Below, in pieces: positions 16,411 through 45,997 of a stretch of 64,000 bases of DNA. The stretch is taken from positions 16,865 to 80,864 of the IMG/VR virus record IMGVR_UViG_3300045988_117858. One strand, 5' to 3'. Within the stretch, counting starts at the first letter, position 1, and each line of letters begins with the position of its first letter. This DNA is from a virus. Made by a program: the position numbers and the translations under genes. The notes beneath the pieces are model-generated. The model worked only from the letters and a program-made list of their open reading frames with translations, did no database searches and had not been told where the DNA came from.

Positions 16411-16875
16411 ATGTCAGAAAATATTTATATTCACTACGGAAGTGATAAGTTTGAGAAAGAGTTGTTTATGTCAATTGTGAACAGAAACATGATTAACAAA
16501 CCATTTGGAGGTTTATGGGCATCGGATATAAAGGCGGATCAGCCGTGGGAGAAATGGTGTATTGATAATGATTTTAGAATTGATAAACTAGACAAAAACT
16601 TTAAATTTACATTGGATGATTCGGCAAATATTGTTGAATGGACAGCGAAAGCCGATTTAAAGCAGGTTCCAACGCAAGATCTATCGGGATATCTCCCAGA
16701 ATATTTATTTGATACAATGGGCGTTGTGCCAGATTTTGAGAAGATGGTCGAAGATGGAGTTGATGCAATTAAGCTTAATTTATCCAAAGGTGATTATGAG
16801 TTATATTATGAGCTTTACGGTTGGGGTTGTGATAGTATTCTGATCATGAATCCTGATATTATTAGACCATTGTAG
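16411..16875 (+). CDS. hypothetical protein (154 aa)
   Basis: GAAAGGATGG RBS; clean ORF. Confidence 0.6.
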   Translation: MSENIYIHYGSDKFEKELFMSIVNRNMINKPFGGLWASDIKADQPWEKWCIDNDFRIDKLDKNFKFTLDDSANIVEWTAKADLKQVPTQDLSGYLPEYLFDTMGVVPDFEKMVEDGVDAIKLNLSKGDYELYYELYGWGCDSILIMNPDIIRPL

Positions 16876-17027: not shown

Positions 17028-17978
17028 ATGGCAGCAACACAGTTTGAAGTTATTGAAACAGTAAACAATAATAACGCAGAAGAATCTGAAACAAAGATTA
17101 AAAGACGTAAGGATGGAAGTCCTAAATGGACTCGATCTAACAAACAAAAAGGCGTATCATCTTTAGTGTATCCGATCAAGGACAGAAAACAATTTGCAGC
17201 CTTTAATGCATATTTTAGAGACCAGATTGATAAATCGTACACAGAGTACAAACGATATGTAGCTGCCAGAAACAATCTTTTGGTTGCAGTTGGAAACAAT
17301 ACAGCATATCGTATCTCTGATATCGTCAGACTCAAATGGGGCGATTTATTAGACGATAAGACTCGTAAGCAGGAAAAGAAAACAAAGAAATTCAGAACTG
17401 TATACTTTAACGATTTGGTAACTGAAGCAGTGGATATTTTCTTTGAAGCTGTTGCAGGAACTAAATATGATGTCAAGATTGATGGCGAAGTGCCAATGGA
17501 TGATTATGTTTTTGGAACATGTAAGTCTGGATCAGGACACATGACTGAAGCAAATGCTTTGGATTTTGTTAAAAAAGGTGCTAAAGCAGTTGGAATTGAG
17601 GACAATATTGGTACGCATACATTACGAAAGAACTTTGTGTATTGGACACTTGTCGATCATAAAGATGATCAGAACGTATTGTATACACTTATGAGATTAT
17701 TGAATCATAGTAGCCCTGCAATGACGTTTTTATATGCTACAATTACAGAAGAGGAAACTCATGTGTTATTTGATGATATTGCTCAGACGTACAAGGATAT
17801 TATCAGCGGAGCATTTAACGGATTAAAGGAAAATGTTATTAATGTGAGTTATGATAGAGTTATGGAGATTATCAAGTGTGCTTATGAGACTGGTAAGGAT
17901 GATGCAGATCAAAATGATAGGGTACATGAGGACAATATGCAGGCACTAAAAGAGCTGCTGGAAGGAGTTATTTTATGA
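17028..17978 (+). CDS. tyrosine site-specific recombinase / phage integrase family
   Basis: AYRISDIVRLKWGDL (Arg I box), HTLRKNF (H-x-x-R), LNHSSPAMTFLYA (catalytic Tyr box); GAGAGGAGAG RBS. Confidence 0.8.
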   Translation: MAATQFEVIETVNNNNAEESETKIKRRKDGSPKWTRSNKQKGVSSLVYPIKDRKQFAAFNAYFRDQIDKSYTEYKRYVAARNNLLVAVGNNTAYRISDIVRLKWGDLLDDKTRKQEKKTKKFRTVYFNDLVTEAVDIFFEAVAGTKYDVKIDGEVPMDDYVFGTCKSGSGHMTEANALDFVKKGAKAVGIEDNIGTHTLRKNFVYWTLVDHKDDQNVLYTLMRLLNHSSPAMTFLYATITEEETHVLFDDIAQTYKDIISGAFNGLKENVINVSYDRVMEIIKCAYETGKDDADQNDRVHEDNMQALKELLEGVIL

Positions 17979-27228: not shown

Positions 27229-27780
27229 ATGAAAATATTAATTGTCGTCGATATGCAGAATGACTTCATCGACGGAAGCCTTGGAACCAAAGAAGCACAG
27301 GAGATCGTTCCAAAAGTTGTTGAGAAGATAAATTCGTTCGATGGGCGTCTTATTACAACATATGATACTCATTTTGAAGATTATCTATCAACACAGGAAG
27401 GTAAAAAATTACCAGTAGAACATTGTCTTCTTGGTACCAATGGGTGGCAGCTCCATCCAGACGTACAACAAGCTTTGCAGACAAATGGATGGGAATATAA
27501 TGGTTTGAATGACTATCATAAAATGTCTTTTGGGTCTACCGACTTGTTTTTTGATTATTGTTTATTACACAAAGAGCAAAAAGAAATAATTAAAAGTATT
27601 ACATTAATCGGTCTTTGTACAGATATTTGTGTAATTTCAAACGCAATGTTATTAAAAGCAGCGTTACCAGAAGCAAAGATTATCGTAGATGCTTCCTGCT
27701 GTGCTGGTGTAACTCCAGAGAGCCACAAGAACGCACTCGAAGCAATGAAAATGTGTCAAATTGAAGTAATTAATGAATAA
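27229..27780 (+). CDS. pncA: nicotinamidase (isochorismatase-family cysteine hydrolase, PncA-like)
   Basis: ILIVVDMQNDF; TYDTHFEDY...LPVEHCLLGTNGWQLHP (PncA metal-site D/H/H pattern); catalytic Cys in LIGLCTDICV. Confidence 0.8.
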   Translation: MKILIVVDMQNDFIDGSLGTKEAQEIVPKVVEKINSFDGRLITTYDTHFEDYLSTQEGKKLPVEHCLLGTNGWQLHPDVQQALQTNGWEYNGLNDYHKMSFGSTDLFFDYCLLHKEQKEIIKSITLIGLCTDICVISNAMLLKAALPEAKIIVDASCCAGVTPESHKNALEAMKMCQIEVINE

Positions 27781-27794
27781 AGGGGTAATAAAGA

Positions 27795-28631
27795 ATGATT
27801 AGTATTAATGGAGTCCCAGTTGTTCCAGAATCTTTTCCAGATGGAACGCAAAAAATTGATTTTTCGTTAGGTGTGATATCTCAAGAAATCATAGAAAACA
27901 AGACAGTGTATATCACATGGTTATATGAGTCAGATCAAGAGTTGTTTTCTTTGTTGTGTATTTCTAAAAATATTAAAGAACATTTTCCGTGGTTACAACA
28001 AGCATTAGTGATGCCGTATATACCAAATGCAAGATTTGACAGAGTAAAAGAGCCAAGCGAATGCTTTACATTAAAATATTTTGCAGAAATTATTAATAGT
28101 CTGGGATTTGTACGAGTTATTGTAACTGATCCACATTCCGATGTATCTACTGCATTGATTGATCATGTAGAAGTAATTCGTGGAGCATCATATATCACAC
28201 AAACTTGCTGCAAAGTCCTTAAAGCAGAGTCATCAAGAAATCTTGTAATTTATTTTCCAGATAGCGGATCACTAAAAAGATATTCTGAATTTGTATCAGA
28301 TGATTATCCGATTGTCTATGGAATTAAAAATCGTGATTGGAAGACAGGAGAAATTCTTGGTATTGAGATTCATGGAGATACAGATAAATTAGATGAGAAT
28401 ACAGCAATTCTAATGATTGATGATATTTGTAGTAAGGGTGGCACATTCTATTATGGATCAAAAGAATTAAACAAATACGGTTGTAAAGATATGTATTTAT
28501 ACGTTAGTCACTGTGAAAATACAATTCTTGATGGCGAATTATTAAAAGAAGATAGTTTGTTTAAAAAAGTGTATACGACACGTAGTATTTTTACAAAAGA
28601 ACATGAGAAAGTTGAGGTGTTAGATTTATGA
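27795..28631 (+). CDS. divergent ribose-phosphate pyrophosphokinase (Prs) homolog, candidate ADP-ribose pyrophosphokinase (Adps-like)
   Basis: MPYIPNARFDR in place of the Prs signature IPYFGYARQDR; VIVTDPHSD (Prs DLHA region); PRPP-binding-loop-like AILMIDDICSKGGT; stop overlaps next start (ATGA). Confidence 0.65.
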   Translation: MISINGVPVVPESFPDGTQKIDFSLGVISQEIIENKTVYITWLYESDQELFSLLCISKNIKEHFPWLQQALVMPYIPNARFDRVKEPSECFTLKYFAEIINSLGFVRVIVTDPHSDVSTALIDHVEVIRGASYITQTCCKVLKAESSRNLVIYFPDSGSLKRYSEFVSDDYPIVYGIKNRDWKTGEILGIEIHGDTDKLDENTAILMIDDICSKGGTFYYGSKELNKYGCKDMYLYVSHCENTILDGELLKEDSLFKKVYTTRSIFTKEHEKVEVLDL

Positions 28632-39952: not shown

Positions 39953-40258
39953 ATGAACAACTTCTTATATATTGAATCACGGGAAGAAGAGAATACATCC
40001 CTCGATTCTAAACGTGTTTTATTGAATGAAGAAAATTACAAACATATTATTTCATCATTAGATCATTATCCACCGACGGCAGACGAAGTTAAGAAAGCAA
40101 TTTGTATTTTGACTGGACGATTGATCTACAGAAGCGTTTGGAATATGGAATCTGATATTGATAGTTTAAATATGAGTTTATCACCGCCAAAAGAAATGAC
40201 GGTTGCAGAAATTGAAAAGGAACTTGGTTATAAAGTTAAGATTGTAAAGGAGAAATAA
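39953..40258 (+). CDS. hypothetical protein (101 aa)
   Basis: AAAGGAGAG RBS. Confidence 0.5.
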   Translation: MNNFLYIESREEENTSLDSKRVLLNEENYKHIISSLDHYPPTADEVKKAICILTGRLIYRSVWNMESDIDSLNMSLSPPKEMTVAEIEKELGYKVKIVKEK

Positions 40259-40569
40259 TGCCAATGGCAAAAAAGAAACAAGGAATGTCGTTTGAAATGA
40301 TGATGCAAAATATGGAAATTAATCCAAGGCAATTGTATCGTCGTAGTTCGTGGAAGAAGACACGAACAACTTATGATTATGTGTTTATGATGTGCGAAGA
40401 AGAATTAAATGAGATTATTCCATTTGATAAAAAATATAAAATGAAACCACTCTTATGTAGAGACCAAAATGGAGTTATAACATTGGGATGGTTGCCTACA
40501 CAAGAGGATATTTTCGCAAATGATTGGGTTGAGCAAGGATGGGATTTTAACAGTAAAAGGAAGAGGTGA
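40258..40569 (+). CDS. small protein sharing a C-terminal W-x-P-x-x-E-D-h-h-A-x-D-W motif with the next gene (DUF2829-like?)
   Basis: GWLPTQEDIFANDWVE versus WIPLAEDVYADDWEI in the neighbouring gene. Confidence 0.35.
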   Translation: MPMAKKKQGMSFEMMMQNMEINPRQLYRRSSWKKTRTTYDYVFMMCEEELNEIIPFDKKYKMKPLLCRDQNGVITLGWLPTQEDIFANDWVEQGWDFNSKRKR

Positions 40570-40577
40570 ATAATTAA

Positions 40578-40877
40578 TTGAATTTTATAAAAGCAATGAT
40601 CGCAATAAAAAAAGACAAAACTACTATAAGAAGAGGCATTTGGGGAAAGGAAAAGTATTTGAAAATTTATTCGTCAGAATTAACTAATGTTTATTTTGAG
40701 TGTAATGATATGGGTGAATATAAGCCAGATTCAATTATTTTTTTATTTGATAAAGAAAACGCAGAAGTTTGGATACCTCTTGCGGAAGATGTATATGCAG
40801 ATGACTGGGAAATATATGTTGAATCGGTTAAAAAGCCAAATCAATCAAAAGCAAAGGTGAAGGAGAAAGAAGAATGA
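40578..40877 (+). CDS. DUF2829 / Tad2-like small protein (candidate anti-Thoeris signal sponge family)
   Basis: FIKAMIAIKKDKTTIRRGIW...WIPLAEDVYADDWEIY pattern as I recall for DUF2829; TTG start. Confidence 0.4.
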   Translation: MNFIKAMIAIKKDKTTIRRGIWGKEKYLKIYSSELTNVYFECNDMGEYKPDSIIFLFDKENAEVWIPLAEDVYADDWEIYVESVKKPNQSKAKVKEKEE

Positions 40878-41287
40878 AAGTGTTTTTAGGCGGAACATGC
40901 TCTGGATGGAAGTGGAGAGACCAGCTACAGAAGATGTTGGATTGTGATTATTATAATCCAATCGTAAAAAATTGGAGTGAAGAAGACCGACTGCGGGAAG
41001 TCAAGGAAAGAGAAGAATCTGACTATGTTCTGTATGGCATTACGAATGGTATTAAAGGAGTATACAGTATTGCAGAAGTAGTTGATGATTCTCATAAGCG
41101 ACCAGATAAAGTGATCTTTCTTAATCTCTATCAGGAACAAAAGAATAAAGAATCTAAGCAGATGAGCCACAGTTTAAAAGCAGTCGAAAATTTATTGAAA
41201 GAAAATCGTATTAAAGTATATTCTGGCGTACATGCTATGCAGGATGTTGCAGATTTTCTTAACTTAATGAATAAACGAAAGGGGTAA
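40874..41287 (+). CDS. nucleoside 2-deoxyribosyltransferase/LOG-like fold protein (putative)
   Basis: MKVFLGGTCSG...NP...SDYVLYGITNGIKGVYSIAEVV resembles the Y/FxxGxxF...GTxxExG pattern of the family. Confidence 0.4.
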   Translation: MKVFLGGTCSGWKWRDQLQKMLDCDYYNPIVKNWSEEDRLREVKEREESDYVLYGITNGIKGVYSIAEVVDDSHKRPDKVIFLNLYQEQKNKESKQMSHSLKAVENLLKENRIKVYSGVHAMQDVADFLNLMNKRKG

Positions 41288-41293
41288 AGAAGA

Positions 41294-42248
41294 ATGAAAT
41301 GTTTTTATCATGTTGATCAGGACGGCATCGTATCTGGTTTCTATGTCAGAAAAGCTTGCGAACAGCGAGGTTTAGAGTTTAAACCAGAAGACTTCCGAAA
41401 AATTAATTACGGCATGAAATTCCCGTTTCATGACATTGAGCAGGATGAATTTGTGTTTATTGTAGACTACAGTATTGAGCCAGAAGAGATGTGGCAGTTG
41501 CTCAGTATTACAAAGAATGTATTTTGGATCGACCATCATCAGTCTACGATTGAAGCGTATAAAGATTTCAAGTGTGATGTAAAAGGAATCAGAATTACTG
41601 GAACGGGTATTTCAGGAGCGAATTTGACATGGTTATATTTTAAATATATGTGTGATGAAAATTGGGAGTAAATTGAGAGGACGGATGAGAAAAATGTAAA
41701 AAGATTACTCAATATATATAAATATAAAGCAGATTATCCAAAACTGGCAGAATATACAGCCATGTGGGATACATTTTATTTTGGTGAAACGTCAAAACAA
41801 TTCGTAAAAGCATTTCACTATGCATTTGAATCGTATGATTTTGATGCGTTAAGTCCATTGTTAAACACGTTAAATAAAGATCAAGGAATTTATGAAGCAG
41901 CAAAAATTATTGGTGATATGATAGCAGATGGCTTATCAATTATTGAGTATTTAGCAGCAAATGCAGAACAATATCTTAGAGCATATGGTTTTGAAACCAT
42001 ATTTGAGGGACATAAAGTCTATGCAATCAACAGAGCGTTAATCAATTCTGATTTCTTCGAATCTATTGATGCTTCTAAATACGATATGTTTATCGGTTTT
42101 TCATTCAATGGAAGTATGTGGTAATATCAGCTACGATCCGCAGAACAAGATAAAGTAAATGTGTATGAGCTTGCTGTGAAATATGGTGGTGGCGGTCATC
42201 CAAATGCAGCTGGGTTCAGATGTGATAAATATGTATTAGGAGTGTGAT
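41294..42248 (+). pseudogene. NrnA-like DHH-DHHA1 phosphoesterase (nanoRNase/pAp phosphatase family) interrupted by two in-frame TAA codons
   Basis: HVDQDGIVSG (motif I), WIDHH (DHH), YGGGGHPNAAGF (DHHA1) all lie in one frame spanning 41294-42248; stops only at 41669-41671 and 42122-42124. Confidence 0.6.
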
Positions 42249-42250
42249 GT

Positions 42251-43054
42251 ATGTCAAGGAAAAATACAAGAGAAATTGAACTTGCTTTTAGTAAAAACAG
42301 AGATCCAGATTGGGAAGCCGATGTGGAAATTTATAGAAGAAGAAAGTTCGAAGTAGTGCGTGGTATTTGTCTGGGAGATGAGTTTGCTGAAATTGAGTCT
42401 TTAGAATACAAAAATTGTGACGAGTTAGATGAAATGTATTATCGTTTTGATTATAATTTAAAAATACTTATGCAGTCTTATTTGTATGAATATACAGATT
42501 ATGTGCCAATCGAAACAATGCATATTACATCTCCTGCAATATTGTGTTGTGATGAAATTGTATTAAAAAACGGTGAGAAAATTTCTATTGATAACATATG
42601 TATTGATAAATCAAATGGCAATGAAGTTTATAAATTATATTCTAATAGTACATATACAGATGATGTATATTATGAATCTACTAAAGCATTAGTTTATGAA
42701 TTGGCTAGTAAAGATGTTTGCAAGGCTATACATATAATGAAAGATATGATGGACAAAGCGTATATAAAAGCAAGAAATGAACGAAGCATACATCCTTTTA
42801 TTAGCCACTTGTTTAACGACCCTCCAATTCCATGTATTAAAAATAAATATTCTATACATGATTTAGTAATGGGTACATTAAAATGCAGTGGTGATATTTA
42901 TAAAGAAATAAACAAAGAAGTCCCAAATGCTATAGATATGATTGTGCCTCATCCTGGAAGACATGCAGAGTATTATTTTGGGTTAGATTATACAGATGAA
43001 GTAGAGCAATTTATTAAAGAACAGGAGGCTAAGAAATGTGAAGAAACTAAATGA
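42251..43054 (+). CDS. hypothetical protein (267 aa)
   Basis: TAGGAGTG RBS. Confidence 0.55.
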   Translation: MSRKNTREIELAFSKNRDPDWEADVEIYRRRKFEVVRGICLGDEFAEIESLEYKNCDELDEMYYRFDYNLKILMQSYLYEYTDYVPIETMHITSPAILCCDEIVLKNGEKISIDNICIDKSNGNEVYKLYSNSTYTDDVYYESTKALVYELASKDVCKAIHIMKDMMDKAYIKARNERSIHPFISHLFNDPPIPCIKNKYSIHDLVMGTLKCSGDIYKEINKEVPNAIDMIVPHPGRHAEYYFGLDYTDEVEQFIKEQEAKKCEETK

Positions 43055-43589
43055 TGAACAGCGAAAGCTGATTGAAGATAATTATTCTTTGATTTGGCAT
43101 TTGCATGAGAAGTATTTTACAAAATTTAAAGATTTTGATACATATATGGATCTTGGTCGTATGGCAATTTGCAAAGCAGCATTAAAATGGGATGAGTCTA
43201 AAGGTAATTTTGGGACGTATTTTAGATGGGTATTACAGTCAGAAATTAATAAATATTATATAAAATGGCATAGCCCAACAGAGAAAATGAACAGAAATGC
43301 GGAATCATTGGATGCACCTGTTGACGAAAGAGTTGACGCAGAAGAATTAACAATTGGTAGTTTGCTTGTGAGTAACGATGACATAGAGAGTCAAGCACTA
43401 ACAACAGTATATTATCAAGGAGAATTTAACAAATTATCAGACAAGCAGAAGAAAATTATATATATGTTACTTGATGATATTGAGCATAAATACATAGCCA
43501 AAGAATTTGGAAAGAGTATTCAATGGGTAAGTTGGCAACTTGGTAATATTAAAAAAATAATGCATAGGGCAAAGGCGGTGAGATCATGA
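43038..43589 (+). CDS. sigma-70 family sigma factor (phage-encoded, regions 2 and 4)
   Basis: TYMDLGRMAICKAALKWDESKGNFGTYFRWVLQSEINKY (region 2-like); C-terminal HTH; GTG start; paralog of 49930-50472. Confidence 0.6.
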   Translation: MKKLNDEQRKLIEDNYSLIWHLHEKYFTKFKDFDTYMDLGRMAICKAALKWDESKGNFGTYFRWVLQSEINKYYIKWHSPTEKMNRNAESLDAPVDERVDAEELTIGSLLVSNDDIESQALTTVYYQGEFNKLSDKQKKIIYMLLDDIEHKYIAKEFGKSIQWVSWQLGNIKKIMHRAKAVRS

Positions 43590-44419
43590 CAATTGAAGAA
43601 GTGAAAGATTACATAAACTCGTCTACAGAGTATGATTTTTTGCGAGATTATCCTCATAAAATCGCTTTTCTCACACTAGGTGGAAGTTATGCTTACGGAA
43701 CAAATACAGAGGATTCTGACATTGATTTACGTGGTGTTTTCCTTAGTGATAAAAGAGAGATTTTGTTGAATAATAATCCAAATAATCTTGAAAAGACAGA
43801 CGATCATAAAGATGTTGATACTGTGTTACATTCGCATATTAAGATGATTAACATGCTTGCAAAAGGTAATCCTACATATTTAGAACTGTTGTATTTTGCG
43901 CCAGACCGTTATTTGTGTGTATCCGATATTGGTATGGAGTTGATCAAAAATAGAGATATGTTCTTATCTAAGAGAGTTTATCATGCATATAAAGGATATA
44001 TATGTGATTGCCTGACTCGAACGAGTTTTAAGTATTATAAAAATAAAGATTCAGAGAAAGAAAAGCAAAAGGCGGAACGATACGCTAATAAATCAATGAT
44101 GCACGCAGTTCGATTATTGTTACAGGGCATTGAATTATTGCATAACGGAACAATGTTAGGATCTATGGATGACATAGGAAAAGATCTTGTAAAGATCAAA
44201 GAAGGATATAATAGTACGCATAAAACATATAGATTTGGCAAACACAATGAGCATACAGAATATTTCCCAAATCAGTCATACGATGTTTTTATTGAAGGAT
44301 TACTTTATCAATTTGATTATGATTATATGAATACTGATTTGCCAGACGAACCAGACTGGGATCGTATCAATAACTTCTTGATGACAACAAATGAACGAAT
44401 TGTGAGAGGAATGGTGTAA
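43586..44419 (+). CDS. Pol-beta-superfamily nucleotidyltransferase (pfam10127-like)
   Basis: LGGSYAYGTNTEDSDIDLRGVFL is the GS-x9-13-DxD NTase active-site motif. Confidence 0.65.
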   Translation: MTIEEVKDYINSSTEYDFLRDYPHKIAFLTLGGSYAYGTNTEDSDIDLRGVFLSDKREILLNNNPNNLEKTDDHKDVDTVLHSHIKMINMLAKGNPTYLELLYFAPDRYLCVSDIGMELIKNRDMFLSKRVYHAYKGYICDCLTRTSFKYYKNKDSEKEKQKAERYANKSMMHAVRLLLQGIELLHNGTMLGSMDDIGKDLVKIKEGYNSTHKTYRFGKHNEHTEYFPNQSYDVFIEGLLYQFDYDYMNTDLPDEPDWDRINNFLMTTNERIVRGMV

Positions 44420-45187: not shown

Positions 45188-45525
45188 TGGATATACATAT
45201 TGGAGATTTTTGGCAGAATAAATGTAATCCAAAAGTAATTCAGCATGTGGTTAATTTTTCATTTAGAATGGGTGGAGTCCCAAGTAGTAAAGATATGCTA
45301 CTGATCTGTGAAGAATTTCATTATACAAAGATAGGTGAGAATCCTGCCTCTGTTAAAGAAGATTCCAGATTCTTCTCACATATTACAGTGGATAATTTTA
45401 AAAAGATGAATCAATGTATTCTCAGTGCTGAGAGGATTATGAAAGATACTCAGGCATTTAAAACAGATAAAGATATTTTGGATTATTTAACGAAGAAAGT
45501 GGAGGAGAAATTAAATGCAAAATAA
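45187..45525 (+). CDS. hypothetical protein (112 aa)
   Basis: AAAGGAGAAAG RBS. Confidence 0.5.
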   Translation: MDIHIGDFWQNKCNPKVIQHVVNFSFRMGGVPSSKDMLLICEEFHYTKIGENPASVKEDSRFFSHITVDNFKKMNQCILSAERIMKDTQAFKTDKDILDYLTKKVEEKLNAK

Positions 45526-45997
45526 TATATTTCAGATTTATTTGGCTGGCGGTATGCAAAACTTATCGTTTACAAAACAAAATGAGTGGCGAGAAAAAAT
45601 TCGTAAATCACTTATCAGTCGATGTAAAAAAACATGTGCCGATACCAAGCCAATGAATATTATTAACCCTGTAGATTATTATAATTTTAAAGAAAAATTA
45701 TTCGATACAGAGAAAGAAGTGATGCGATTTGATACCAACTTTGTTAGAAACAGCGATCTTGTAATTGTTAATGCAAATGATCCGAAAAGCATTGGAACGT
45801 CTATGGAGATTGCGATCGCATATGAACATCATATTCCTGTACTGATTCTGAACAAAGATATTGAACCATTACATGCTTGGTGGATTGAGATGTCTGATAG
45901 AGTGTTTAGAGATTCTGACAGTTTATGCGATTATGTTACAGATTTCTACTTGACGATGAAGCATTATAATTGGGAGCATAACGTGACAATGAAATAG
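45515..45997 (+). CDS. nucleoside 2-deoxyribosyltransferase family protein (NDT/LOG-like)
   Basis: IYLAGGM ... DLVIVNANDPKSIGTSMEIAIAYEHHIPVLIL with catalytic-Glu context. Confidence 0.6.
   Translation: MQNNIFQIYLAGGMQNLSFTKQNEWREKIRKSLISRCKKTCADTKPMNIINPVDYYNFKEKLFDTEKEVMRFDTNFVRNSDLVIVNANDPKSIGTSMEIAIAYEHHIPVLILNKDIEPLHAWWIEMSDRVFRDSDSLCDYVTDFYLTMKHYNWEHNVTMK

Follow-up and report, generated by a model that had tools for sequence, protein, structure and literature searches.

The "Tad2" proteins form a family of sponges whose large size and functional plasticity are established, so that two further members would in themselves be unsurprising. The ligands reported for the family include 3'cADPR, His-ADPR, N7-cADPR, cGG/cGAMP, and cUMP/cCMP (PMC12393519, 10.1101/2024.01.03.573942, PMC10680739). 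SPO1 Tad2 (Gp34.65; PDB 8SME/8SMF/8SMG and 8WJE) is a sponge for 1''-3' glycocyclic ADP-ribose (gcADPR) that inhibits type I Thoeris. HgmTad2/AcrIIA7 (PDB 8KBI-8KBM and 8WJC; pdAcrIIA7, 9KZR) is a dual sponge for gcADPR and cyclic dinucleotides, and binding of tracrRNA has also been reported. ModTad2, from an M. odoratus prophage (PDB 8V3E and 9EIB), sequesters His-ADPR (type II Thoeris) and cUMP/cCMP (Pycsar) and thus illustrates a homologue of the same family in which the ligand has changed while the fold has been kept. Here, two adjacent open reading frames, ORF1 and ORF2, in a stretch of 64,000 nucleotides of viral DNA (IMG/VR record IMGVR_UViG_3300045988_117858, positions 16,865 to 80,864; the whole stretch is referred to below as the window) are compared with these relatives.

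Of note at this locus is the occurrence of three Tad2 paralogs in one phage lineage, a canonical protein together with a strictly paired, co-translated, and divergent duo whose predicted pocket subtype (first Trp not followed by Asn, and Glu in place of the adenine-contacting Thr) is found in no solved structure. A conserved scaffold, purifying selection, an accessory slot, and a co-resident canonical Tad2 make additional, non-redundant sponges the most economical explanation, and it is with moderate confidence that ORF1 and ORF2 are interpreted here as two non-redundant nucleotide-signal sponges in an accessory anti-defense slot.

Membership in the Tad2 Family

Both proteins exceed the gathering threshold of 25 bits set by Pfam for PF11195 (Tad2-like, formerly DUF2829), ORF1 with 34.2 bits (E = 3.8e-8, profile positions 1-71 of 73) and ORF2 with 45.3 bits (E = 1.3e-11, profile positions 1-73 of 73), and PF11195 is the sole Pfam-A match for each. 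This profile search bears out the original prediction, which had named the DUF2829/Tad2 family from the letters of the sequence. The coordinates and lengths it gave for the two adjacent frames (103 and 99 amino acids) are accurate, the blocks it quoted (GWLPTQEDIFANDWVE, WIPLAEDVYADDWEI, and FIKAMIAIKKDKTTIRRGIW) are all present in the proteins, and the W-x-P-x-x-E-D-h-h-A-x-D-W motif that it described as shared is correct in both. The proteins do not end at this motif as had been supposed, however, for ORF1 runs 11 residues further (QGWDFNSKRKR) and ORF2 20 residues (YVESVKKPNQSKAKVKEKEE).

Comparison with solved Tad2 chains is also in line with the original prediction. Searched with phmmer against PDB sequences, ORF2 matches SPO1 Tad2 and M. 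odoratus Tad2 (E ~4e-4 to 1e-3), and its family profile finds the SPO1 chain 8sme with E = 5.7e-8 (hmmsearch); the best match of ORF1 is the HgmTad2/AcrIIA7 chain 8kbi, over the C-terminal third of that chain only (E = 5e-3). Matches in PHROGs are to families of unknown function that carry the PF11195 domain, NCBIfam has no model for the PF11195/Tad2-like domain, and a homologue with 71% identity bears the NCBI label "Thoeris anti-defense Tad2 family protein." In 18 diverse members, among them ORF1, ORF2, SPO1 Tad2, and ModTad2, an Arg, two Trp, two Asp, and a final Trp (R, W, W, D, D, W) do not vary, and the family-invariant motifs, Arg-x(2,3)-Trp in the N-terminal part and W...D....DW in the C-terminal part, are present in both window proteins. 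On these sequence comparisons, membership of ORF1 and ORF2 in the Tad2 family is secure.

In general organization the pair resembles SPO1 Tad2, with similar size (89 amino acids in SPO1 Tad2), the same order of elements (an N-terminal helix, beta strands, and a C-terminal helix with W-x-P...D...DW), a similarly short central region, and an alignment of ORF2 that runs from end to end. Unlike SPO1 Tad2, from which they differ at nearly three-quarters of positions (identity 25-28%), the window proteins have extra C-terminal tails and are encoded as a coupled pair rather than by a single gene. The C-terminal half of ORF1 (LLCRDQNGVITLGWLPTQEDIFANDWV) aligns closely with residues 70-101 of HgmTad2. 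Structure prediction adds little to these comparisons. Mean AlphaFold2 pLDDT values were 48.2 for ORF2 and 39.7 for ORF1 with all available homologues used, the models being poor because the alignments are shallow, with retrievable homologues all from the same phage clade. When the low-confidence ORF2 model was searched with Foldseek, the credible matches were 8wje, 8smf, and 8v3e only, all of them Tad2 structures (probability 1.00, TM 0.48-0.62, E ~1e-2); as the method also uses sequence, this gives weak support only for a Tad2 fold (alpha1, beta1-beta5, alpha2, and alpha3).

Both genes are under purifying selection. Values of dN/dS well below 1 (0.11-0.18 for ORF1 and 0.24-0.49 for ORF2) indicate that they are genuine, maintained coding genes, and ORF1 has 68 invariant positions across 6 homologues. 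The upstream ATG of ORF1 can be taken as its real start because relatives lack Met at the position of the internal M10, and the TTG start of ORF2 is confirmed by diverged relatives that carry ATG at exactly this position.

A Noncanonical Ligand Pocket

The ten residues by which SPO1 Tad2 contacts 1''-3' gcADPR (bioRxiv 10.1101/2023.05.01.538930) can be mapped onto both window proteins with concordant phmmer, hmmsearch, and MAFFT alignments (Table 1). Only three of the ten (W25, W73, and D79) are kept in both, and all three are family-invariant; T65, D67, H71, and S76 differ in addition to N26 and T78. The last two positions are diagnostic. The Asn of the W-N-G motif (N26 in SPO1 Tad2 and N22 in HgmTad2) contacts phosphates and hydroxyls from both protomers, and the adenine is hydrogen-bonded by Thr (T78 in SPO1 Tad2 and T92 in HgmTad2) or, in ModTad2, by Ser. 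In HgmTad2, where the contacts are W21, N22, G23, W87, L88, S90, T92, and D93, the W21A/N22A and S90A/T92A/D93A mutants lose binding (PMC10680739). The window proteins have W-K-K or W-G-K where HgmTad2 has W21-N22-G23, and Glu in place of its T92; ModTad2 has W-N-G and S-D, and they have neither.

Table 1. Residues of ORF1 and ORF2 at the positions of the SPO1 Tad2 contacts to 1''-3' gcADPR
SPO1 Tad2	ORF1	ORF2
W25	W32	W22
N26	K33	G23
I63	R68	L56
T65	Q70	D58
D67	G72	E60
H71	L76	E63
W73	W78	W65
S76	T81	L68
T78	E83	E70
D79	D84	D71

These replacements are not sporadic. That of N26 is fixed within each paralog family, with Ser in one ORF2 homologue as the only variation, and the Glu at the T78 position is invariant in all homologues of both paralogs. 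By comparison, W-N-G and [T/S]-D occur in all solved Tad2 proteins that were read across both motifs (SPO1, ModTad2, and SptTad2), and HgmTad2 has S-Q-T-D in the aligned segment, its W21-N22-G23 being taken from PMC10680739. Motif statistics were drawn from the 29 matches (E <= 1e-3) of a joint-profile HMMER search of 1.8 billion representatives; in distant relatives there is a tendency for W-N to occur with T/S/A-D and for non-Asn residues to occur with E/D-D or others, so that the two positions co-vary. The broad Tad2 alignment (A3) contains no conserved stretch of 7-10 columns. The E-D variant is also found in unrelated phages and in several architectures, and it is a real subtype of the pocket, structurally uncharacterized as far as could be found.

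The length of the central region is informative as well. The spacing between the two Trp residues is 46 in ORF1 and 43 in ORF2, compared with 48 in SPO1 Tad2 and 66 in HgmTad2 (W21 to W87), so that both proteins are of the short type and, unlike HgmTad2, have no 35-41-residue beta2-beta5 insertion of the kind present in the cyclic dinucleotide-binding HgmTad2 and SptTad2. This insertion builds the cyclic-dinucleotide pocket, and SPO1 Tad2 does not bind cyclic dinucleotides.

The original prediction had proposed sequestration of gcADPR against Thoeris. Compared residue by residue, the proteins do not bear this out, and their membership in the gcADPR-binding class is not secure because the two defining polar contacts were looked for and are absent from both. 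ORF1 and ORF2 as canonical gcADPR binders are thus not supported by their predicted pockets. The Glu at the T78 position could still hydrogen-bond a base, and some binding of ADPR-like ligands could be retained. Overall charge was considered as an argument against nucleotide binding and rejected, since the core of SPO1 Tad2 is equally acidic.

Loss of the canonical small-ligand contacts would also fit a change of function. The ligand of one or both proteins might be a structured RNA of the host, whether tracrRNA or some other guide or regulatory RNA, held in the basic groove of a tetramer in place of a small-molecule signal. This is the manner described for AcrIIA7, a PF11195-family tetramer that binds tracrRNA in vitro via the conserved lysines K58, K66, and K71 (PMC13133391, 2026). 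The chain that best matches ORF1 in the PDB is that of AcrIIA7/HgmTad2, whose fold forms tetramers, and Lys/Arg-rich N-terminal helices and basic tails that are lacking in canonical Tad2 occur in both window proteins (MPMAKKK... and ...SKRKR in ORF1, ...KKPNQSKAKVKEKEE in ORF2). Basic residues in the N-terminal helix and loop of both correspond, at the level of the region, to the groove of pdAcrIIA7. Such a role nevertheless seems improbable. The anti-CRISPR activity of AcrIIA7 is disputed, Li et al. having failed to reproduce it in vitro or in vivo; the core domains of ORF1 and ORF2 are net acidic or neutral; and a strictly conserved Trp/Trp/Asp scaffold under purifying selection is more easily explained by a small-ligand pocket.

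A Canonical Tad2 in the Same Lineage

A further indication of what the pair may do comes from a third PF11195 gene of the lineage, found at locus L017, which encodes a protein of 87 amino acids with the motifs K-G-W-N-G-K and W-L-A-S-Q-T-D. This protein strongly matches the solved chains of ModTad2 (1.6e-25), SptTad2 (6.6e-19), HgmTad2 (1.6e-18), and SPO1 Tad2 (3.3e-14) and keeps eight of the ten SPO1 contacts. It belongs to the same family as the pair and occurs in the same genomes but, in contrast to the pair, is encoded by a single gene and has W-N-G and S-Q-T-D.

Of the 26 IMG/VR contigs that carry the pair, 23 also have the canonical gene, as located by a protein scan and by exact 32-mer matching, which argues that the pair is non-redundant with it. 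It sits ~26.7-27.0 kb downstream of the pair, a distance that projects it to ~67-68 kb in the genome from which the window was taken, just past the 64-kb end; the window itself contains the two divergent Tad2 genes only. The canonical gene is also present in lineage genomes that do not have the pair, with more than 590 IMG/VR relatives as against ~30 loci for the pair. The lineage thus has a widespread canonical Tad2 and an optional divergent pair. On one contig (IMGVR_UViG_3300045988_110675; locus L134) the canonical gene has a stop replacing the pocket Trp (KG*NGK) and is an inactivated copy; this contig has no pair, its slot being in the empty state (L228).

Since the pocket differs and the lineage has a separate canonical Tad2, the pair is probably not doing the canonical gcADPR job. 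ORF1 and ORF2 are anciently diverged, co-translated Tad2/DUF2829 paralogs carried in a variable accessory slot, and in the mechanism proposed here each would most likely assemble into a Tad2-type oligomer. Inter-subunit pockets built on the Trp/Trp/Asp scaffold would then trap a small, nucleotide-derived immune signal of host origin and so keep the effector of the host from ever being switched on. A polar pocket lining unlike that of every solved Tad2, together with the retention of a separate canonical protein, makes it most likely that the pair targets further signals, instead of the canonical one or alongside it, and each paralog would probably have its own specificity.

Several observations weigh against interpretation of the pair as sponges. 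Against PF11195 the two proteins score only modestly (34 and 45 bits) next to the canonical Tad2 of the lineage, which reaches 97 bits, and the polar contacts provided by N26 and T78 are replaced in both proteins. The predicted pocket lining of ORF2 is markedly acidic (D58, E60, E63, E70, and D71), which would be awkward for a diphosphate ligand, and the AlphaFold2 models are unreliable, so that their pocket geometry was not interpreted.

How the Two Paralogs Are Paired

Compared directly by BLASTP, ORF1 and ORF2 share only the C-terminal block (E = 2e-5). Their family profiles are nevertheless colinear over 76 columns, with ~25% identity (hhalign E = 9e-5), and from these alignments the similarity between them is not due to chance. 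They are regarded as old paralogs because they are only ~25% identical. A recent tandem duplication was considered and rejected, given this level of identity and the resemblance of ORF1 to the HgmTad2 type and of ORF2 to the SPO1 type.

The two genes travel together. A profile search of all open reading frames found them adjacent and identically ordered in each of the 35 pair-bearing loci of the lineage, and neither ORF1 alone nor ORF2 alone was seen in any locus examined. Their translation appears to be coupled. The last codons and TGA stop of ORF1 form the sequence GAGGTGA, which doubles as the Shine-Dalgarno sequence of ORF2 and is followed 9 nucleotides later by its TTG start; in every junction variant found among relatives, this signal is embedded in the 3' end of ORF1. 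The ATG of ORF1, as read from the sequence, in turn overlaps the TAA stop of the gene upstream (TAATG). Attempts to define an operon were uninformative, with promoter scans giving the same count as shuffled sequence and no terminators found.

So close an association raises the issue of whether the two chains might form a mixed oligomer of the Tad2 type, for example with two copies of each, providing asymmetric pockets that would be impossible for either homo-oligomer. Constant co-occurrence in a fixed order would suit such an assembly, as would a ribosome-binding site within the last codons of ORF1 that favors equimolar co-translation. Each pocket of SPO1 Tad2 is formed by two protomers that contribute different residues, and ORF1 is basic at pocket positions (K33 and R68) where ORF2 is acidic or neutral. 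Distant single chains with 2-4 Tad2 domains offer a hint of the Rosetta-stone type. These are metagenomic proteins (P0029, P0031, P0032, P0034, P0037, P0038, P0042, and P0043), and no description of multi-domain Tad2-Tad2 proteins was found in the literature searched.

A mixed assembly is all the same considered unlikely. Known sponges, Tad2 included, have all been described as homo-oligomers, and fusions of the Acb4-Tad2 type have been modeled as independent homotetramer modules, so that fusion does not prove hetero-assembly (PMC12265669). Moreover, adjacent and co-translated paralogs are predicted equally by two independent sponges, the explanation preferred here. Less likely still is the more specific proposal of an obligate hetero-oligomer whose asymmetric pockets, basic on the side of ORF1 and acidic on that of ORF2, would share the Trp/Trp/Asp scaffold and capture a signal that no characterized Tad2 binds; if true, this would be the first heteromeric phage sponge, complementing the canonical Tad2 of the same genome.

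As two independent sponges, the pair would be comparable to the multi-sponge fusions Acb4-Tad2 and Tad2-Sequestin (PMC12265669), in which several sponge modules are combined to cover several signals, but would differ from them in consisting of separate co-translated polypeptides that are both of the Tad2 family. Either a new signal or a heteromer would, if true, extend what is known of how phage sponges are built or of the chemistry they cover, and there is a modest chance that the pair represents a new variant in architecture or specificity. Multi-domain or fused Tad2 loci also occur at L063:3242-4141 and L065:3587-4207, and on a 175-kb viral contig one Tad2 domain is fused behind a P-loop domain that is guanylate-kinase-like by eye.

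An Accessory Slot with Exchangeable Cargo

The pair occupies a slot, defined as the site between a conserved gene for a protein of 101 amino acids and a DHH phosphoesterase gene (Table 2), and the region around it is mosaic. With lineage genomes that lack the pair recovered by means of a conserved upstream k-mer, the slot was found in five states: the Tad2 pair (19 loci); the pair with a 137-amino acid nucleoside 2-deoxyribosyltransferase-like (NDT-like) gene (16 loci plus the window); the NDT-like gene alone (L205 and L224); a gene for a protein of 209 amino acids (L208, L213, L227, L229, and L232); and empty (L228). Swapping in and out among five states is typical of anti-defense cargo.

The NDT-like gene, whose ATG overlaps the TGA of ORF2 (ATGA), is thus an optional cassette, present in 16 of the 35 pair-carrying loci in addition to the window. 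Even where the Tad2 genes of two lineages are ~22% apart, this cassette is 99-100% identical, and recent horizontal exchange is thereby implied. The 209-amino acid protein begins MELYNTGDLYLIGGAPREFLETGNIKDAKDIDVVI, has no Pfam match at E <= 0.01, and shows by eye a G-G-x-x-R...D-x-D motif reminiscent of nucleotidyltransferases; it is a candidate for alternative counter-defense cargo. By association, both it and the NDT-like gene are candidate counter-defense genes.

Occurrence in an optional slot might also be taken to mean that the pair has no anti-defense role, the proteins being a regulator or a structural accessory, or one paralog being a degenerate copy. The absence of the pair from many lineage genomes fits this explanation, as do the missing canonical ligand contacts and a weak match of both proteins to phrog_643 ("transcriptional regulator"). 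That label, however, is unverified, and sponges are now known from the family that bears it; the Pfam-A search gave no match to a DNA-binding domain. Purifying selection and invariant scaffold residues indicate that neither gene is decaying, and dispensability and slot behavior are just what is expected of counter-defense cargo, so that a pair without a role against host defenses is doubtful at best.

Table 2. Coordinates of the gene pair, its sequence features, and other genes discussed (window numbering except where a locus is given)
Feature	Position	Strand	Remarks
ORF1	40258..40569	+	103 aa, ATG start; divergent member of the Tad2 family (PF11195), with the domain at residues 10-91; N-terminal extension MPMAKKKQG, basic; conserved C-terminal tail EQGWDFNSKRKR
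ORF2	40578..40877	+	99 aa, TTG start; divergent Tad2-family (PF11195) protein; domain, residues 1-80; C-terminal tail variable, Lys/Glu-rich
ORF1 start region	40247..40260	+	Shine-Dalgarno AAGGAG 40247-40252; ATG 40258-40260
Coupling junction	40563..40580	+	GAGGTGA 40563-40569, then TTG 40578-40580
ORF1 W32-K33	40351..40356	+	Pocket Trp kept; Asn of W-N-G replaced by Lys
ORF1 W78-L-P-T-Q-E83-D84	40489..40509	+	W73/D79 equivalents kept; T78 equivalent is Glu
ORF2 W22-G23	40641..40646	+	Pocket Trp kept; Asn of W-N-G replaced by Gly
ORF2 W65-I-P-L-A-E70-D71	40770..40790	+	W73/D79 equivalents kept; T78 replaced by Glu and S76 by Leu
Conserved 101-aa gene	39953..40258	+	Function unknown; upstream slot border; found in every relative, pair-bearing or not
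137-aa NDT-like gene	40874..41287	+	PF15891, 28 bits, below cut-off of 30
DHH/DHHA1 phosphoesterase gene	41294..42247	+	Downstream slot border; phrog_4771, E = 4e-17; GGGGH motif
Nicotinamidase-like gene	27229-27780		Weak match
Prs-like gene	27795-28631		88 bits, below cut-off
Nampt-type phosphoribosyltransferase gene	28628-30097		NCBIfam PRK09198, 437 bits; cut-off 405
NadE gene	30115-30885		Above cut-off
Canonical Tad2 example	L017:14010-14273
Canonical Tad2 example	L072:3001-3261

The 101-amino acid protein at the upstream border has no family match in Pfam-A or PHROGs. At the downstream border, the DHH gene of the window is one continuous frame broken by two in-frame TAA codons (41669-41671 and 42122-42124). 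It is colinear with intact genes (315-317 amino acids) in 34 of 34 relatives, whose codons at these places are CAA and GAA, and in the window it is therefore either a very recent pseudogene or affected by sequence errors. Read-through or recoding of the TAA codons is unlikely, as the stops are confined to the window and each of the 34 relatives has sense codons instead. The position of a DHH gene beside candidate sponge genes raises the question of nucleotide or oligonucleotide degradation.

NAD+ Genes, Lineage, and Host

The window also contains genes for NAD+ salvage and synthesis ~10 kb upstream of the pair (27229-30885). The NAD+-reconstitution cassette of the original prediction is broadly borne out by a Nampt-type phosphoribosyltransferase and NadE; NMNAT, which defines NARP2 together with NAMPT, was not identified among the window frames scanned. 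With its NadE and nicotinamidase-like gene, the cluster differs from the published NARP1, NARP2, and NARP3. Layered countermeasures, in which these genes and the Tad2 pair would act in the same genome, are plausible.

The genome is large and AT-rich (G+C, 33%), and its genes all lie on the same strand. A megablast search of the region against GenBank phages gave no match and a scan of species-representative bacterial genomes gave no relative, but relatives are abundant among contigs of 140-170 kb from gut metagenomes and IMG/VR. The best available clue to the host is a fully syntenic contig of 35 kb, pair included, in the assembly of the isolate Anaerostipes sp. Marseille-Q3525 (GCA_018223505.1, JAGTTT010000027.1; locus L071), which has TerD, vWA, and PspA-like genes upstream. 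It suggests that the phage, of ~160 kb, infects gut Lachnospiraceae of the Anaerostipes type, and a new signal bound by the pair, or a heteromer, would, if true, point to signaling defenses in these bacteria, which are little studied.

The window also holds a second NDT-like paralog (45515-45997) and, near the pair, other genes of accessory appearance. A weakly sigma-70-like protein is encoded at 43038-43589, an RNA-repair-type nucleotidyltransferase of the RlaP family at 43586-44419, and an SPFH/flotillin protein at 31286-32746; a tyrosine recombinase (17028-17978) and two Bro-N proteins are found at a greater distance. In two relatives a 422-amino acid IS605 OrfB/TnpB gene with a Cas12f-like TNB domain (L005:3242-4510 and L008:3309-4577) is inserted ~1.5 kb upstream of the pair, an insertion that is absent from the window.

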